Below, piece by piece: positions 54,421 through 61,015 of a DNA stretch of 64,000 nt. This stretch comes from an uncultured delta proteobacterium. GTDB taxonomy: Bacteria > Desulfobacterota > Desulfobaccia > Desulfobaccales > 0-14-0-80-60-11. The notes beneath the pieces were generated by a model. That model ran no database searches. It was not told the origin of the DNA and saw only the letters and a program-made list of their open reading frames with translations. The translations under genes and the position numbers were made by a program. Positions within the stretch are counted from its first letter, which is position 1. The number at the start of each line of letters is the position of its first letter. Location: the NCBI GenBank assembly GCA_963841475.1, contig CAWJCT010000001.1, positions 613,052 to 677,051 of the forward strand, written 5' to 3'.

Positions 54421-55157
54421 TTATATGACCATTACGGCATCATACCATAAATTCCCGGGGGAAAGGCGCCGAGGTTGGGCGTCAAACTATCATCCGCAGT
54501 ATTTTCACCTCTGACCTGGTCCAGGCGCAACCGGGGCCGAGGCCTGCTGGTGAAGATTTGGTTCGTCATTCTTTTTCACCCGGCGGATCGTAGGTTCACC
54601 TCGGGAATATTCTCAAGCAGTTTCGATCCGGAGGAGTGATGAGTTTCTTATAGTTCATTAATTTTGTTAAAATAAATCAAACGTTAGTTAAATAATTAAT
54701 GACGTTACTGAAAAATAGAGTTCAGAGTTGCTTACAATACCTGCCGATGGTCGGTGGAGGTCGCATCCACCTTTACTTTGGCAGACTAGGAGCGGATAAC
54801 GCCGGCTCCAAGCCATGGCCGGCAAGACCAAGATGTACGGGCGCACCCGTGGGCTGGTAGGTATAACTTGCAGGGCTGATTAGATATTTCTGGTTTTACT
54901 CAAAACCTAATCGTTTGGGGAGGTTAATTCTGGAGCAAGCGTTGTGATGCACCGGCCTTGGGCGACTCTATTTGGGGGGGCAGAAATTTTAGTTAATCTC
55001 AGAATAAAATAATTGCTTTTCAAACAAGTGAATGTTAATTTTCTTTTTGAAAGGTAGGTCTTACTTGATGAAGGGACTTTTTGAGGGGTAAGATCGGGGA
55101 AAGAGAAAAAGATTTGGTGTGTCAGTGAGGCGTTAACCTCTGAAAGGAGAATTTGTG

Positions 55158-55448
55158 ATGACCAGAAAAGGGCCCAACCAAGAGCCGGAAGAAGCCCCGA
55201 AAGATGAGGGCTTGACCAGGCGCACGGCCATTAAGCGGATCGCCGCCGGTCTGGCGGGTGCAGGCATCGTCGTCGTCGCCGGGATTTTCGGCCAGGGGCA
55301 GGACCGCCAGGTCTATGAAAAAGGGAAGTACGGCGACTCAGCCAGTGAACCCTATGGCGATTCCGCGCCGAAGAATAGAAATGAGATGGCGACGCCGCCT
55401 TACGGTGATTCGGCCAAGCTGCCCTACAGTGATAAGGCGCCAAATTAA
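55158..55448 (+). CDS. Candidate RiPP precursor: Tat-like signal/anchor plus a C-terminal region with P-Y-G-D-S-A repeats
   Basis: AAGGAG RBS 8 nt before the ATG. LTRRTAIKRIAAGLAGAGIVVVAG, then KYGDSASEPYGDSAPKNRNEMATPPYGDSAKLPYSDKAPN. The three YGDSA units use different synonymous codons. Confidence 0.6.
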   Translation: MTRKGPNQEPEEAPKDEGLTRRTAIKRIAAGLAGAGIVVVAGIFGQGQDRQVYEKGKYGDSASEPYGDSAPKNRNEMATPPYGDSAKLPYSDKAPN

Positions 55449-55454
55449 TCAGGC

Positions 55455-55562
55455 GTGAAACGCCGCCCGTATCTGAAATACCCTGCCGGCCGTTACCGCC
55501 ATTGGTGGTTCGGCTTTTTCCGTGGTGATTTCCGCCTGGTTGGCGGTCCCGCCCTGCTGTAA
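55455..55562 (+). CDS. Possible 35-aa aromatic/basic mini-ORF (speculative)
   Basis: A GTG 6 nt after the precursor stop opens VKRRPYLKYPAGRYRHWWFGFFRGDFRLVGGPALL. There is no clear RBS. Third-position GC is consistent with coding. Confidence 0.15.
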   Translation: MKRRPYLKYPAGRYRHWWFGFFRGDFRLVGGPALL

Positions 55563-55577
55563 CGCCTGCCCTGGGGA

Positions 55578-56618
55578 ATGACGACCATGGCGACCATTCT
55601 GCTGAACTCCCCCTGCCACCGAGCCCGCCCCCATGGCAGCGCCGCTAACGAGACCTACGGCCCCACGGGGGCCCAGTCGCTGTCTTGGGAAAATCTCATC
55701 TACATCGCGGATTTTCTCCGGGCCTCCGGCCAATTCCGGGTATCTCTCGGAGGAGGGGAGCCGATTATCCACCCGGAGTGCGTCGACTTCATCCTCTACC
55801 TGCTGGACCGCGGTTTCGACGTGACCCTGTGCACCGATGGTATCCTGAGCCCGCTCCGCCTGAAGGAGTTTAGGCAGCATCTCACCGGGGTCCCCATCGA
55901 GGGGTTCCAGGTGCTGTGCCATTTCCCTGATCCGGTTCAGCCTCCGGGTTTGCCCCGGGAAACGCCAGGGCTGCACCGTTTCCTGGCGGTCATGGGACCC
56001 TGGACCCAGGGGGGCTTTACTATCCATGGGCCGGATTTCAGCCTCGATTTTCTGTTCGAGGCCATAAGCCGGTTCGGCCTGAAGCGCCAGGTGCGCCTCA
56101 GCCTGGCCCATCCTGCCCCCGGCAGCCAGGCCGGGTTCATCGAGGCTGGGGAGATGCGGCGGGTCGTTGAGGGGCTCAATGAGCACCGGCAGCTATTCGA
56201 GAGCCAGCGCGTCCGCCCGGACCTCGACTGCGGCTGGCCCCTCTGCACGTTCAGCGACGGAGAACTCGGATGGCTCCACCGCCTCCGGGGCCAGGCCCCG
56301 GGCGGCTGCCGGCCTGCCTTCGCCATTGCGCCGGACATGACGGTGTCTTTCTGCCTGGCGCTGTCTCATTATCAGAGCACGTCCCTGTTCGAGTTCGATG
56401 ACCTGGAGCAGATCGACCGACATTTTTCCCGGCTGCAGGATAGAATCAAAGCGGAGGCCGCCGGCATCTATCCGGAATGCGATGGCTGCGCTTCCCGGGA
56501 AAACGGTGGCTGCAGCGGCGGGGGGCTGTGCCAGATTGTCAGTCGCAGCATGGGCCAGGCGCCCAGACGCGGCGCGGGGGTGGAGGATGGGGTTTCCCAG
56601 GATCGTCTGCCCGGATAG
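55578..56618 (+). CDS. Radical-SAM-fold/SPASM-type protein lacking the canonical CX3CX2C motif
   Basis: GGGEPIIHPE SAM-binding motif. SPASM-like cysteines (DLDCGWPLC, MTVSFC, CDGCASRENGGCSGGGLC). The N-terminus reads ILLNSPCHRARPHGS where CX3CX2C is expected. Confidence 0.55.
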   Translation: MTTMATILLNSPCHRARPHGSAANETYGPTGAQSLSWENLIYIADFLRASGQFRVSLGGGEPIIHPECVDFILYLLDRGFDVTLCTDGILSPLRLKEFRQHLTGVPIEGFQVLCHFPDPVQPPGLPRETPGLHRFLAVMGPWTQGGFTIHGPDFSLDFLFEAISRFGLKRQVRLSLAHPAPGSQAGFIEAGEMRRVVEGLNEHRQLFESQRVRPDLDCGWPLCTFSDGELGWLHRLRGQAPGGCRPAFAIAPDMTVSFCLALSHYQSTSLFEFDDLEQIDRHFSRLQDRIKAEAAGIYPECDGCASRENGGCSGGGLCQIVSRSMGQAPRRGAGVEDGVSQDRLPG

Positions 56619-57387
56619 CGAGATTTTACTCCAAAGCTTTACGGGGCTGTCGGTGGCTCTGAGGCTGAACCATTGCCAGGGCATCGCGGCCTGTGCGGAA
56701 CACGTCCTGAAGTCCGGCAACACCCTTTTCTGTGTCATCGTGGAATCGGACCGTCCGCTGGCGGATATGGAATTCGATGACTGCCACCGGGGCATCCCCC
56801 TGGCGGTCATGGCCCCTGCCCTGGGGCGTTTCCGGGACCTGGCCCGGCATCTTGACCGGCTGCGCAGCCTCAACCTGCGGGTTTATTTTCCCGGCGACCA
56901 GCCCGGAAACCTGAAAGGTTTGCGCATCTTGTCGTCAGTGGGAATCCACTGCTGCGCCGATTTCCGGCAAGGCGGCACAGATTGGGAGGCCCTGGCCGAT
57001 TTGGCCACCTACGCGGTGCTGGAACGGACGCCCCACGCCGCCATGGAACCCTTCGCCTTCATGGCCGCGCACTACCCTGCGTCCCATCGCCTCGACTGGG
57101 GGCGGGTCTGCTTCGATGATCCCCGGCATTTTCTCCATCTGGACGGCAACGGCCGGGTCGCACTTTCCCAGGCGGAATTGGCCGAGGGTCGGTTTGTGGC
57201 CCACAGCCTGGATGAAATAGGGGCGCCAGCGGAATTTCCGCCGATCCGGGAGCGGCTGCAGTCCTGGAGACGCTACTTCGTTGACAGCCACCCCTGCGCC
57301 TTCTGCGGCGGGTGGCGGCTCTGTCTGGGAAATTCTCCCGGGATCCCGCCGCCAGGGGCGGATGTTCCGCATTCTTTCAGGAAATGA
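56587..57387 (+). CDS. Hypothetical protein with a SPASM/twitch-like C-terminus
   Basis: It overlaps the upstream gene by 32 nt. FLHLDGNGRVALS, then HPCAFCGGWRLCLG. A +1 shift after CLG would give KFSRDPAARGGCSAFFQEMIDL... ending at TGA 57451-57453, overlapping the next ATG. Confidence 0.45.
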   Translation: MGFPRIVCPDSEILLQSFTGLSVALRLNHCQGIAACAEHVLKSGNTLFCVIVESDRPLADMEFDDCHRGIPLAVMAPALGRFRDLARHLDRLRSLNLRVYFPGDQPGNLKGLRILSSVGIHCCADFRQGGTDWEALADLATYAVLERTPHAAMEPFAFMAAHYPASHRLDWGRVCFDDPRHFLHLDGNGRVALSQAELAEGRFVAHSLDEIGAPAEFPPIRERLQSWRRYFVDSHPCAFCGGWRLCLGNSPGIPPPGADVPHSFRK

Positions 57388-57442
57388 TCGACCTGGTGCG
57401 CCAGTCTATGGCGTTGCAGGCGGCCCCGGAGGAGCGCCGCAT

Positions 57443-58572
57443 ATGGCAACCGTGATCTTCAAACCCACGGAGGCCTGTAATTCCCGGTGCATATACTGCG
57501 AAGTGGTGAAGAAAACCCGCGGTCCGCGGCGGATGACCTTCAAGATCCTGGAATTATTTTTCCAGCGAGTCAATGAGTTCCTGGTAGAACGGCCGCAGGA
57601 AGAAATGGAAATCATCTGGCACGGCGGCGAACCTCTCCTCCTGGGCCCCGGCTATTTTGAACGGGCTCTGATTTATCAGGAAAAGCATTGCGCCGGGACC
57701 GCCGGCCGCATCGAGCACTCTATTCAGAGCAACCTCACCCTGCTATCCAGGGAATTCCTCGATCCCCTGAGAAGACTGGGGATCACCACCATCGGTTCCA
57801 GTTATGATCCCGTCGCCAACATTCGGGGCCTGGGGGCGAACCGGGACTGGAGGGAGTATAACCGTCGTTTCCTGGATGCCATCGGACTCCTGGAAGACGA
57901 AGGGTTTAATTGGGGCGTGGTCTACGTGGTGACCCGGCAGTCCCTGGCCAGGCCGGTGGAGATCTTCAATTACCTGACCAACATGTCACCCCGGCGCGGC
58001 CTCAGGTTCAACCCCCTTCTGGCGTATGGCGAGGGACTGGAGCACCTCAAGATTTCCCCGGCCGAGTATGCGGAGTTTCTGGGGACCATATTCCCGGTGT
58101 GGTGGCAGCATCGGGCTGATTTCGGCCACGTCGAGCCCTTGGTTTCTCTGGTCCAGAAACTGGTTGGCGAGGGCAAGGCATTGACCTGCACCGAAGCCGG
58201 GGCCTGCGCTTCCAGCCACCTCAGTGTGCGTCCCGACGGCAGCACCTCCCATTGCGGCCGTTCCGCGGATTGGGGGTTGCTGGATTACGGCTCCATCCGG
58301 GACCGATCATTCTCGCAGATTTTCGCCGATCCCCAGAGGGAGGTCCTCCAGCGGCGGGGTGCCGTCCTGCCGGAAACCGAGTGCGGGACTGCCGGGTTTG
58401 GGATTTCTGCCACGGCGGCTGCCCCCTGGATGCCTGGTATACCGGGGGGTCGTTTCTTCATAAAACCGGCTGGTGCCTGGCCCAGAAAGCATTGATCGAA
58501 AAATACATCGAACCCCTGGTCGTCGGGGGCAACGCCGGCTCGGTCGAGAGTCACAGGGCAACTCTGCCATGA
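57443..58572 (+). pseudogene. Radical SAM/SPASM peptide-maturase-like enzyme (anSME family), one frameshift
   Basis: GGAGGAG RBS. MATVIFKPTEACNSRCIYCEV (CX3CX2C), WHGGEPLL, and after a shift near 58385, CRDCRVWDFCHGGCPLDA (SPASM). Confidence 0.75.
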
Positions 58573-58585
58573 GAGGGGAATAACC

Positions 58586-61015
58586 ATGGGCCCAAAAGGG
58601 CTGTTAGAAGTGGTGTTAGGGGTGGTCGTGGTGTTTGGTTTCTGCCAGGCCGGTTGGACCGGTAATGGCGACATGAACCGGCTGGCCAAGGAAGGCAAGC
58701 AGGCGTATGACGCGGCCAATTACCTCGAGGCCCTGGCCAAGTGGCAACAGGGACTGGAACTGGCGGAAAAATCAATGAATCAACCGGCGGCGGCGGAATT
58801 TTTAGCCAATCTGGGCCTGGCCTATGATGCCCTGGACCAGTATGAGCGGGCTTTGGAAAATGCCCAGGCGGCCCTGGCCATCCACCGGGACCTCAAGGAC
58901 CGCCGGAGCGAAGCGCATGACCGGAATGACCTGGGTGTGGTCTATCGTCACCTGAGCCAGTATGACCGGGCCCTGGAGAATCACCAGCAAGCCCTGGCTA
59001 TCCACCGGGAGTTCAAGGACCTCCGGTTTGAGGGGAATGAACTGATCAACCTGGGCGAGGTGTACTATGACATCGGCCAGTATGAACAGGCCCTGGAATG
59101 TTTCCAGCAGGCCCTGGACATCTTCCGGAAGATCAAGGGCCGCCGGGGCGAGGGGCAGGCCCTGAGCGACATGGACGGGGTGTGCCGTGACTTGGGCCGG
59201 TATGACCAGGCCCTGAAGACCTTACAGGAGAGCCTGAAGATTGGCCAGGAAGTGGGCCATCCGGAAAACCTCTGGAGGGCGCAGCGAGCCCTGGGAGCTG
59301 TGGAGGTCAAACTGGCCAGATATGACCAGGCCATCGATCATTACCAGCAGGCCCTGGATACCATTGAAGGCCTGCGGGCCGGCCTGGACAGCAAGGAAAC
59401 CAAGTCCACCTACATGAAGAACAAGCTCTTTGTCTATGACGAATTAATCGAGCTGCTCAGGTCCCTGCACGGCAAAGATCCGGGTAAAGGCTATGACCGG
59501 GGCGCCCTGGAGATTTTTGAGCGCAAGCAAGGGCGCCTCTTCCTGGAAGAGATGGGCCAGAGCGGCGCCCGGAACTTCGCCGGATTGCCGGAGCAGGTGA
59601 AAAGCCGGGAAAGCGCTTTAGAAAGCCGCCTGGATAAGCTCCAGGCCGACCTGGTTAAGGAGCGGTCCCGGCCCACGGTGGACCAGGCGCGCCACCAAGC
59701 CCTGGAAACCGAGTTGCAGCGGGCCAGGGCAGACTTCCAGGCCCTGAAAGCCGAACTGCAAGCCGGCTACCCCGACTACTTTGCCCTCAAATATCCTCAA
59801 CCCGCCAAGCTGGCCGAACTCCGGACGAAGGTCCTGCAATCCGGGGAGGTCATCATGGTGTACGGGGTCATGCAAGATAAGACCTGCCTGTGGGTAATCG
59901 GCCCGGAGGTCTTCCAGCTCCATACCATACCCGTGGGGGAGGAAGACCTGGGCCGCAAGGTGACTGCCTACCGGCGCCAGGTTTTGAAGACCGAGGGGGA
60001 GGGTGGCGAAGCGGCGGCCCCCCAGGGCCAGGCCGAAAAAGAGCGGGAGCGGCTCCACCATGAATTGTATAGTCTGCTCTTCCCCGCCCCGGTCCCTTCG
60101 GCCCTGCCCGCCGGTTGCCGCCTGTATATTGTCCCCACCGGCCCCTTATATGGCCTGCCTTTCGAGGCCATGGAAACCCAGGCCCCGGGGCAGCCGCCCC
60201 ACTATCTGATAGAGGATTATGCCATCGCCTACCTGTCCTCGGCGTCGCTGCTCAAAACCCTCCGGGAAGCCCAGGCCCGGAAGCAGACCCGACCTGCTTA
60301 TCCCCTCCTGGCCTTTGCCAACCCGCGCTATGGAAAGGTCTCGGGGGACCAGGATAAGGACAAGAAAAGGTCGGTGCGCGATTTGCAAACCCGAGCCTAT
60401 AGAGCGATCCTGGGGGGTACTTTCGAGGAACTGCAGGAAACCGAAGATGAGGCCCGGGCCATCAAAGAGGTGCTCAAGGCCCCGGACCGGAGCAACCCCC
60501 TCCAGGTCAAGGAAGCAGCCTCCCGGAGCACGGTCTTAAACCTGAACCACACCGCCAGGCTGGCGGCTTACCACTACCTGGTGTTTGCCTGTCATGGGGT
60601 CTTGCCCGGTCAAGTGGACCGGGTGGTGCAACCGGCCCTGGTCCTTTCCCATCCCGAAAAGGACGGCTACCTGACCATGGGGGATGTCTTCAGCCTGCAG
60701 CTCAATGCCGATCTGGTATCCCTGTCCGCCTGCAACACCGGGCGAGGCGCCCAGGTCAAGGGCGAAGGGGTGGCGGGCCTGACCCGGGCCTTTATGTACG
60801 CCGGGACCCCGGCGGTGGCGGTCACCCTGTGGTCGATAGAGTCGGAATCCGCCAAGGAGCTGAATGTGGGCATGTACCGCTGCCTCAGCCAGAAGTACGG
60901 CCGGGCCGCGGCCCTGCAGCACATTAAGCTGGCCCTGCTCCGGGGTGAGAAAGGCAAGCAATACTGCGACCCCTTCTTCTGGGCCCCCTTGGTGGTTTTC
61001 GGGGATGGCCAGTAA
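58586..61015 (+). CDS. TPR-repeat CHAT-domain (caspase-like) protease with an N-terminal hydrophobic anchor
   Basis: N-terminal LLEVVLGVVVVFGFC. At least 5 TPR units with 120-bp DNA periodicity (58838-59400). CHAT dyad FACHG and LSACNTG. It starts 14 nt after the rSAM stop. Confidence 0.8.
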   Translation: MGPKGLLEVVLGVVVVFGFCQAGWTGNGDMNRLAKEGKQAYDAANYLEALAKWQQGLELAEKSMNQPAAAEFLANLGLAYDALDQYERALENAQAALAIHRDLKDRRSEAHDRNDLGVVYRHLSQYDRALENHQQALAIHREFKDLRFEGNELINLGEVYYDIGQYEQALECFQQALDIFRKIKGRRGEGQALSDMDGVCRDLGRYDQALKTLQESLKIGQEVGHPENLWRAQRALGAVEVKLARYDQAIDHYQQALDTIEGLRAGLDSKETKSTYMKNKLFVYDELIELLRSLHGKDPGKGYDRGALEIFERKQGRLFLEEMGQSGARNFAGLPEQVKSRESALESRLDKLQADLVKERSRPTVDQARHQALETELQRARADFQALKAELQAGYPDYFALKYPQPAKLAELRTKVLQSGEVIMVYGVMQDKTCLWVIGPEVFQLHTIPVGEEDLGRKVTAYRRQVLKTEGEGGEAAAPQGQAEKERERLHHELYSLLFPAPVPSALPAGCRLYIVPTGPLYGLPFEAMETQAPGQPPHYLIEDYAIAYLSSASLLKTLREAQARKQTRPAYPLLAFANPRYGKVSGDQDKDKKRSVRDLQTRAYRAILGGTFEELQETEDEARAIKEVLKAPDRSNPLQVKEAASRSTVLNLNHTARLAAYHYLVFACHGVLPGQVDRVVQPALVLSHPEKDGYLTMGDVFSLQLNADLVSLSACNTGRGAQVKGEGVAGLTRAFMYAGTPAVAVTLWSIESESAKELNVGMYRCLSQKYGRAAALQHIKLALLRGEKGKQYCDPFFWAPLVVFGDGQ

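Follow-up and report, generated by a model that had tools for sequence, protein, structure and literature searches.

We analysed a 64,000-nucleotide stretch of the genome of an uncultured delta proteobacterium (the window; contig CAWJCT010000001.1, positions 613,052 to 677,051; all coordinates below are those of the window), which contains a tight operon of + strand genes between 55.1 and 61.0 kb encoding a precursor peptide, three proteins referred to here as genes 1, 2 and 3, and a protein with TPR and CHAT domains (TPR-CHAT). As part of the overall explanation that we favour, and with the moderate confidence that we attach to it, the operon is read as a cassette for a peptide made on the ribosome and modified after translation (RiPP), in which the precursor is accompanied by three translationally coupled proteins of the radical S-adenosylmethionine (radical-SAM) fold; genes 1 and 2 overlap by 32 nt, and genes 2 and 3 by 13 nt. 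Our principal subject is gene 1, which in the lineage of the window has lost the CX3CX2C motif of the radical-SAM cluster and is retained under purifying selection next to an intact gene 3. The sequence strings that an original prediction had quoted for the three genes are all present where it placed them. The features are as follows.

55158..55448, + strand: precursor peptide, 96 aa, identified as an open reading frame
55587..56618, + strand: gene 1, radical-SAM-fold protein of 343 aa with a SPASM-like C-terminal cysteine set and with CX3CX2C lost; putative non-catalytic subunit
55614..55637, + strand: former cluster loop of gene 1, C-HRA-R-PH-G (codons TGC ... CGC ... GGC); C-NRS-C-PY-C in relatives
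56478..56531, + strand: C-terminal CX2CX7CX5C of gene 1 (C298, C301, C309, C315), which with C215, C220, C241 and C256 forms the SPASM-like auxiliary-cluster set
56587..57455, + strand: gene 2, radical-SAM/SPASM-like predicted fold without a radical-SAM motif, 289 aa; CxxCx5Cx13C at 57295-57365
57443..58572, + strand: gene 3, intact radical-SAM/SPASM peptide maturase; CX3CX2C at 57476-57499 and SPASM CX2CX5CX3C at 58382-58422
58586..61015, + strand: TPR-CHAT protein, candidate processing protease; Pfam CHAT 1.2e-60, TPR_12 6.5e-32

Loss of the CX3CX2C motif from gene 1

Gene 1 reads MATILLNSPCHRARPHGS, followed by GGGEPIIHPE, and near its C-terminus CDGCASRENGGCSGGGLC, in agreement with the prediction that it keeps GGGEPIIHPE and SPASM-like cysteines without CX3CX2C. 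The first cysteine position of the motif is TGC, and the second and third are CGC (Arg) and GGC (Gly), each a single substitution from TGC; neither of the other two frames of gene 1 contains the cysteine motif, and no frame restores CX3CX2C. The motif has been lost by two point substitutions, not by an indel.

A homology search recovered 134 gene 1 proteins. The triad is complete, and of the CNRSCPYC type, in 62 of the 92 full-length members, and at least one cysteine is missing from 30 of them; it is also intact in all 23 loci from GTDB-representative genomes. Distant members begin MANILLTTRCNRSCPYCFA and read CNRSCPYC, whereas the nearest relatives read CHRSRPHG, CNRSRPSG, GRRSRPQG, C-T---SG and similar. 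All but one of the 30 degenerate proteins form a single clade (SH-like approximate likelihood ratio test, SH-aLRT, 98) in a tree built without the N-terminal columns. An alignment of orthologs thus reveals the missing cysteines to be a conserved, clade-wide absence, and the claim that only one of the three proteins keeps the motif holds for the clade of the window but not elsewhere in the family. The degenerate loop is hypervariable and carries indels, and no replacement pattern of cysteine or histidine is conserved in it. The GGEP motif has been lost as well in five of the 30 degenerate proteins (losses read DGGP, EGEL and ESES) and is kept in 24 of the 29 clade members. Locus L005, from the genus of the window, reads CHRYCPPC, an intact but atypical triad without the usual aromatic residue, and it nests inside the degenerate clade, its exact placement being without strong support. 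A single origin of the cysteine loss was at first supported by the tree and was then weakened by this intact triad within the clade; our reading is that constraint on the cluster was released near the base of the clade and that several independent decays followed. We note that P0093, from a JGI metagenome and outside the clade, shows a separate single loss of the first cysteine (H-NRS-C-PR-C), which may be genuine or may be a sequencing error.

Neither Pfam nor NCBIfam has a model that covers gene 1. The Pfam model Radical_SAM (PF04055) scores 26.4 bits against a cut-off of 29.5 and matches only residues 28-100, and PF04055 is annotated in intact gene 1 relatives in a precomputed list; the SPASM profile hidden Markov models TIGR04085 and PF13186 give no match to gene 1. 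Eight conserved cysteines are nevertheless present in a variant spacing, with CX4C followed by GC, by C and by CX2CX7CX5C, as compared with CX9-15GX4C...CX2CX5CX3C...C in SPASM domains. Within the degenerate clade C215, C220, C298, C301 and C309 are invariant, and C241, C256 and C315 show conservation of 90% or more; in the intact relatives C315 falls below that level and the other seven reach it. A search of the PDB with a profile of degenerate gene 1 sequences gave no match at E <= 0.01, and with the profile of the intact sequences only the N-terminal ~100 residues match, to SkfB, GDGT-MAS, CteB, viperin, MoaA and PqqE. An AlphaFold2 model of gene 1 from the degenerate-clade alignment, of low confidence (predicted local distance difference test, pLDDT, 58) and consulted only to place the strands and to compare the fold coarsely, contains six beta-alpha units, and its best Foldseek matches are PqqE, BlsE, SuiB, viperin and SkfB, with E values from 5e-6 to 4e-5.

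The original prediction also warned that the degenerate motif could be an artefact of a window with many indels, and the neighbouring genes do contain errors of this type. The genome of the window is in 4 contigs with an estimated completeness of 70%, typical of an indel-rich long-read assembly. As assembled, gene 2 ends CAFCGGWRLCLG and its remainder (..FSRDPAARGGCSAFFQEM..IWQP) sits in another frame, and gene 3 carries KPTEACNSRCIYC and has its CRDCRVWDFCHGGC in another frame. Comparison was made with contigs from four other soil-metagenome runs (X1-X4), which are at least 99% identical over the parts covered. The runs and the window may share a study of origin, so the independence lies in the method and not in the sample. 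An extra A behind 57329, at an A run, in contigs of X1, X3 and X4 restores CLGKFS...GGCSAFF...IWQP in gene 2, and an extra C behind 58383, at a CC, in contigs of X1 and X2 restores ETECRDCRVWDFCHGGC in gene 3, with the canonical CX2CX5CX3C; no contig covering either site is without the extra base, and the orthologs are unbroken (289 aa for gene 2, 376-377 aa for gene 3). Because other contigs carry the missing bases, the frame breaks in genes 2 and 3 are single-base assembly errors: the suspected +1 shift ahead of GGCSAFF corresponds to one A missing from the assembly. Programmed frameshifting was considered for the two genes and ruled out, since the other contigs and all orthologs have the extra base. 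With a genome 70% complete in 4 contigs, many of the apparent pseudogenes in the window are probably single-base assembly deletions of the same kind.

That the missing gene 1 cysteines are themselves an assembly or sequencing artefact of this indel-rich long-read metagenome-assembled genome (MAG) is, however, highly improbable. Such an artefact might be suspected from the two real single-base deletions next door and from the lack of any independent contig over the motif codons at 55622-55657: the X1-X4 contigs leave 55622-55768 uncovered, and those of relatives (peat and wetland DNA runs X5, X7, X9 and X11, and also RNA runs) stop at 55609 and resume at 55658, which, because they break off at exactly these points, marks 55610-55657, the former cluster loop, as a hypervariable segment. 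The changes in gene 1 are substitutions, the degenerate state defines a clade of 29 members, and the same Arg and Gly recur in independently assembled relatives from ENA, JGI, NCBI and Logan (P0002 and others; the partial relative L047, reading CHRPSPHG, shares the Gly only). Because close relatives share these residues, we take the motif codons in the window to be real.

Genes 2 and 3

Gene 3 has both a CX3CX2C and a SPASM motif, as had been predicted, the latter reading CRDCRVWDFCHGGC once the missing C is allowed for. It scores 53.6 with Pfam Radical_SAM, and its best NCBIfam matches are DynA, anSME, DarE, DarW and several cyclophane formers, all far below their equivalog cut-offs (DynA 134.9 against 450, anSME 129.6 against 349, DarE 115 against 650). 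An ortholog at locus L052 (92% identical) passes the SPASM model TIGR04085 (39.7, above the cut-off of 27) and passes no equivalog model. Gene 3 is clearly a radical-SAM protein, and an intact radical-SAM/SPASM enzyme that resembles anSME and DynA. We note that a second gene 3 homologue, 44% identical, directly follows the first in the Phycisphaerae-labelled locus L022 (8840-10764).

Gene 2 belongs to a uniform family of about 289 aa in which C237, C240, C246 and C260 are invariant (CxxCx5Cx13C), and which has no match in Pfam or NCBIfam, its orthologs included. An exhaustive profile search delineates at least 393 clusters at 50% identity, 242 of them at E <= 1e-30. The best 150 matches include 133 full-length proteins, of which 129 have the four-cysteine motif and none has CX3CX2C in its first 120 residues, in keeping with the prediction that gene 2 has no radical-SAM core. 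An AlphaFold2 model of a 90%-identical ortholog (pLDDT 86) is matched by Foldseek to CteB (5why, E 6e-4, probability 1.00, template modelling score 0.50), PqqE (0.47) and SuiB (0.44), and we conclude with moderate confidence from this predicted fold, which is radical-SAM/SPASM-like, that gene 2 is an old protein of the radical-SAM fold that shows no radical-SAM features. The three proteins had been described as paralogs, a relationship not detectable by sequence: profiles of genes 1 and 2 show none in hhalign (probability 0.4%), and the kinship of gene 2 appears in the predicted fold alone.

Selection on gene 1 and readings of its retention

Selection was estimated as pooled Nei-Gojobori pN/pS over independent pairs (four in the degenerate clade), using a home-made script and loci from genome, metagenome and assembly collections; synonymous sites of the intact-clade pairs are partly saturated, so that the omega values of those pairs are upper-bound-like estimates. 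From codon 33 to the end of gene 1, pN/pS is 0.48 in the degenerate clade (p for omega<1 = 8e-13) and 0.15 in the intact relatives, and over codons 1-32 the corresponding values are 1.23, not different from neutral, and 0.16. Gene 2 yields 0.42 and 0.31, and gene 3 0.23 and 0.14, for the degenerate and intact loci respectively. The median ratio of gene 1 to gene 3 protein distance is 1.82 for degenerate pairs and 1.03 for intact pairs, and that of gene 1 to gene 2 is 1.39 and 0.76. Outside its N-terminal 32 codons, gene 1 of the degenerate clade is under relaxed purifying selection and is clearly not neutral.

Intact gene 1 has 116 columns with conservation of at least 90%. The degenerate clade keeps 91 of these, C111 and seven SPASM-like cysteines among them, and conserves a further 15 columns that are its own. 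The 25 columns that it has lost comprise the cluster loop (positions 10-18), F82, N112, N114, T119, N145, Y147, G172, F239, D246, F257, R264 and a few others. In radical-SAM enzymes SAM and substrate are bound where the barrel strands end on their C-terminal side, and in the low-confidence model F82, N112/N114, N145/Y147 and G172 map to these ends of strands b3-b6.

Because purifying selection persists and the auxiliary cysteines are kept, gene 1 fits a non-catalytic scaffold or recognition subunit, and we favour, as somewhat better than even, the view that in the lineage of the window it is such a subunit, a partner of the still-active enzyme gene 3. In keeping with this view, all degenerate loci retain intact genes 2 and 3. 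The original suggestion that degenerate copies act in substrate recognition or as scaffolds accords with this pattern of conservation, while the function itself is something we infer.

Two other readings of the same data are each unlikely. The first is that gene 1 became functionless after a change of precursor and is simply decaying, persisting through slow loss or because an open frame is needed for coupling to gene 2. The dN/dS of gene 1 is the highest of the locus, at 0.32-0.57 compared with 0.06-0.48 for the flanking genes (window against the syntenic relatives L052 and L053: ALAD 0.06, patatin 0.11-0.13, M50 peptidase 0.21-0.26, MEMO-CapA 0.31-0.48, CHAT 0.20-0.35); the cluster loop evolves neutrally, some members have also lost the GGE motif, and the 32-nt overlap could maintain the frame for coupling. 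Coupling would preserve a frame but not specific residues, however, and omega is significantly below 1, with 91 of the 116 conserved columns retained, seven auxiliary cysteines among them, and 15 other columns conserved in the clade alone. Furthermore, the tree includes 36 gene 1 sequences of the degenerate clade, all of full length, and gene 1 has no internal stop in the loci examined.

The second is that gene 1 is still an enzyme with a different chemistry, whether SAM-independent redox or electron transfer via its auxiliary clusters or a cluster bound through non-canonical ligands, and it too has a low probability in our estimation. The conserved auxiliary cysteine set, the GGEP kept by 24 of 29 clade members and the 15 newly conserved positions would suit such an activity, but the hypervariable, indel-bearing loop has no conserved cysteine or histidine in replacement, and the residues at the barrel-strand ends have lost constraint. 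An electron-relay role, moreover, overlaps with that of a partner subunit rather than competing with it.

Precursors, related cassettes and a proposed role for gene 1

The precursor of the window has a leader containing LTRRTAIKRIA followed by a hydrophobic stretch, resembling a twin-arginine translocation (Tat) signal although it scores 14.4 with the TAT signal model TIGR01409, below the cut-off of 16.7 (S/T-R-R-x-F-L-K and an h-region are expected), and a core of three YGDSA units and one YSDKA unit. Genes 1, 2 and 3 adjoin in the same order in ~40 loci, and nearly all of these carry one to three precursors with the leader motif L[TS]RRxA[IM]KRIA upstream of or near gene 1. The MAGs concerned bear labels that include Thermodesulfobacteriota (Desulfobaccales, Syntrophobacteraceae, Geobacter), Nitrospirota, Armatimonadota, Verrucomicrobiota and Phycisphaerae. 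The cassette occurs in three of 60 relatives of the genome of the window. We note that the distribution of gene 1 is patchy, with the gene in two of 18 genomes of the genus (that of the window included) and four of 61 genomes searched.

The type of precursor core correlates with the state of gene 1. Some 20 loci with intact gene 1 have long Tyr/Ser-rich cores (for example ..SYYTSYRSHYTSVPPPYSSRR), whereas all ten degenerate loci with a visible precursor have short YGD(S/A)xK and LPYSDKAPN repeats. In the sister lineage L004, whose triad is canonical, the core is again short and of another kind, and L005 already has the YGD core while its cysteine triad is kept, from which we place the switch of core before the loss of the cysteines.

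Five loci (L017, L019, L024, L026 and L040, from Syntrophorhabdus and relatives) have genes 1 and 2 and no gene 3. At L017 (2289-9755) the pair lies within a lasso-peptide cluster with, by Pfam, an ABC exporter, a PqqD-transglutaminase and an Asn-synthetase-like cyclase. Gene 2 there is a fusion with a GT9-like glycosyltransferase domain (584 aa), and the precursor carries LTRREAIKRIA and ends ..DVTAGQGGDSKDYGGYCIPV. The precursors of L017, L019 and L040 have LTRREA[IM]KRIA with no hydrophobic stretch, and those of L024 and L026 have LTRREATKRIA. Since the same motif is found in lasso clusters without gene 3, it travels with the gene 1-gene 2 pair and not with gene 3, and since lasso-type precursors bearing it have no hydrophobic stretch, it is not tied to export; this argues that RRxAIKRIA is probably a recognition motif, either in place of an export signal or in addition to one.

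These observations can be assembled into a model in which gene 1 passes from enzyme to partner. The system is ancestrally one of two radical-SAM proteins, genes 1 and 3, both of which would have been active, and a pseudo-radical-SAM protein, gene 2, an old member of the fold with no SAM cluster and one four-cysteine site. In the lineage of the window the precursor core would have changed from a long Tyr/Ser-rich form to short YGD(S/A)xK and LPYSDK repeats, after which the chemistry of gene 1 may have become dispensable, and its CX3CX2C loop and inner barrel-strand-end residues would have decayed. Gene 1 would have been kept, with its fold, its surfaces and its auxiliary clusters and their cysteines, for a structural role, leader binding or electron relay within a complex of genes 1, 2 and 3. 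Gene 3, similar to anSME, DynA and the cyclophane formers, would perform the sole radical chemistry, probably a Tyr-x-Asp cross-link, and would need the gene 1-gene 2 module for leader recruitment, complex stabilisation or electron relay, a proposal offered beside the fact that gene 3 has no N-terminal recognition domain.

Several points weigh against the partner-subunit reading. Complex formation and leader binding by gene 1 are proposals made from sequence, and the mapping of its lost residues to an active site is approximate given a model with pLDDT 58. Gene 1 has the highest dN/dS in the locus, and slow decay therefore keeps some probability; the dN/dS of genes 2 and 3 is also raised in the clade, so that the relaxation may in part belong to the lineage as a whole. 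Independent read support stops short of the exact motif-codon bases. The number and order of the cysteine losses are uncertain given L005 within the clade, and the link between core type and cysteine loss is essentially one evolutionary event and not a replicated correlation.

A broader extension of the partner-subunit reading is possible but doubtful. It holds that the complex is a heterotrimeric maturase and that two of its radical-SAM-fold members have been made non-catalytic, gene 2 anciently and gene 1 recently, and that the gene 1-gene 2 pair is a portable reader of L[TS]RRxA[IM]KRIA that replaces the usual PqqD-like recognition element and serves both lasso-peptide and Tyr-cross-linking clusters. 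If so, the clade of the window would be a natural knock-out in which the reader works without radical chemistry.

The much closer experimental precedent for the partner role suggested for gene 1 is, by analogy, the thuricin CD pair TrnC/TrnD, sactisynthases that form a tight complex on one precursor and that, like the proteins here, are radical-SAM-fold maturases encoded together (PMC12093266). A TrnD mutant without its radical-SAM cluster still supports full modification, double mutants in its auxiliary cysteines are inactive, and TrnD has been modelled on the leader peptide (PMC12093266). The likeness has limits: the TrnD cluster is naturally present and active and its dispensability was found by mutagenesis, whereas here the motif has been lost naturally throughout a clade; moreover, the present system has a third, older pseudo-radical-SAM protein in gene 2, and its active enzyme would be anSME/DynA-like and not a sactisynthase. 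The partner subunits of MNIO enzymes (oxidative enzymes that depend on multinuclear non-heme iron), MbnC and TglH, likewise illustrate how a non-catalytic subunit guides a precursor to a catalytic one (reviewed in PMC12141560); they have other folds, whereas the partner proposed here would be a degenerate copy of a radical-SAM enzyme.

The comparison with HxsB/HxsC that the original prediction had offered is a poor one. There too two adjacent radical-SAM-family genes accompany a small repeat peptide, but both Hxs proteins keep CX3CX2C, the scores fall far below the cut-offs (HxsB 48.8 against 370, HxsC 18 against 268) and the precursor contains no His-Xaa-Ser repeats. TIGR04347, which we take to be a 'pseudo-SAM/SPASM protein' family without the cysteine triad, provides a named precedent for SPASM-type homologues without radical-SAM chemistry in a different lineage and context; it does not match genes 1 or 2 and touches only the SPASM region of gene 3 weakly (30.8 bits against a cut-off of 525).

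Triceptides carry a C-C cross-link from an aromatic ring to the +2 residue of an aromatic-x-x motif, installed by one radical-SAM/SPASM enzyme. The triceptide maturases and their relatives (DynA, DarE/DarW, anSME, YhhB, FxsB, GrrM/OscB, AmcB, XyeB) supply the best profile matches of gene 3, and the precursor here repeats aromatic-x-x units (Y-G-D, Y-S-D) and is accompanied by a TPR protein, as three-residue cyclophane systems are by FxsT or HaaT. Those systems differ in using a single radical-SAM enzyme, with no gene 1-gene 2 pair and no such leader motif.

Pseudo-radical-SAM proteins (TIGR04347 by name) and complexes of two radical-SAM proteins are already known; what is new is an undescribed cassette in which, across a clade, one catalytic cluster has been lost naturally and in connection with a changed substrate. 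We found no description of the cassette in the literature on pseudo-radical-SAM partners, on radical-SAM RiPPs with Tat leaders or on CHAT proteins, in a search that left most subscription journals outside and that is weak evidence. Radical-SAM peptide maturases are usually treated as self-contained, and TrnC/TrnD, the one well-studied exception, needed mutagenesis to be recognised. Here evolution has carried out the cluster-removal experiment, in that a clade has kept the protein and its auxiliary cysteines and dropped the SAM-cleaving cluster just after the substrate changed, which offers a directly testable instance, inside a RiPP pathway, of an enzyme becoming a scaffold. It also adds a three-gene cassette that is uncharacterised, occurs in anaerobic soil and wetland bacteria and has a gene 2 family of at least 393 clusters that Pfam and NCBIfam lack, and it cautions genome mining that counts of radical-SAM genes overestimate the number of modifications.

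The TPR-CHAT gene is confined to the lineage with short YGD-type cores and to a single distant locus, L021: it lies downstream of the cassette in L004, in L005, in the degenerate clade and in L021 alone, and was seen besides the window only in L004, L005, L021, L033, L035, L049, L053 and L054. Its product is a candidate processing protease, and because its N-terminus is hydrophobic (..VVVVFGFCQAGW) its site of action may be extracytoplasmic. Flanking synteny over ALAD, M50 peptidase, patatin and MEMO-CapA is common to the window, L052 and L053. Precursor genes in tandem sets of two or three, alike in leader but varied in core, are found at L054 (4772-5860), L032 (272-830) and L053 (5307-5760), and at ~11.1-11.7 kb in L014 and L016. 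Finally, wetland metatranscriptomes (RNA runs X13-X16, compared with 55000-58700 of the window) contain contigs 90-95% identical to genes 1-3, one of which reads ..YGNRS.., a degenerate loop variant; this suggests that related cassettes are transcribed in situ, with DNA carry-over as an alternative.

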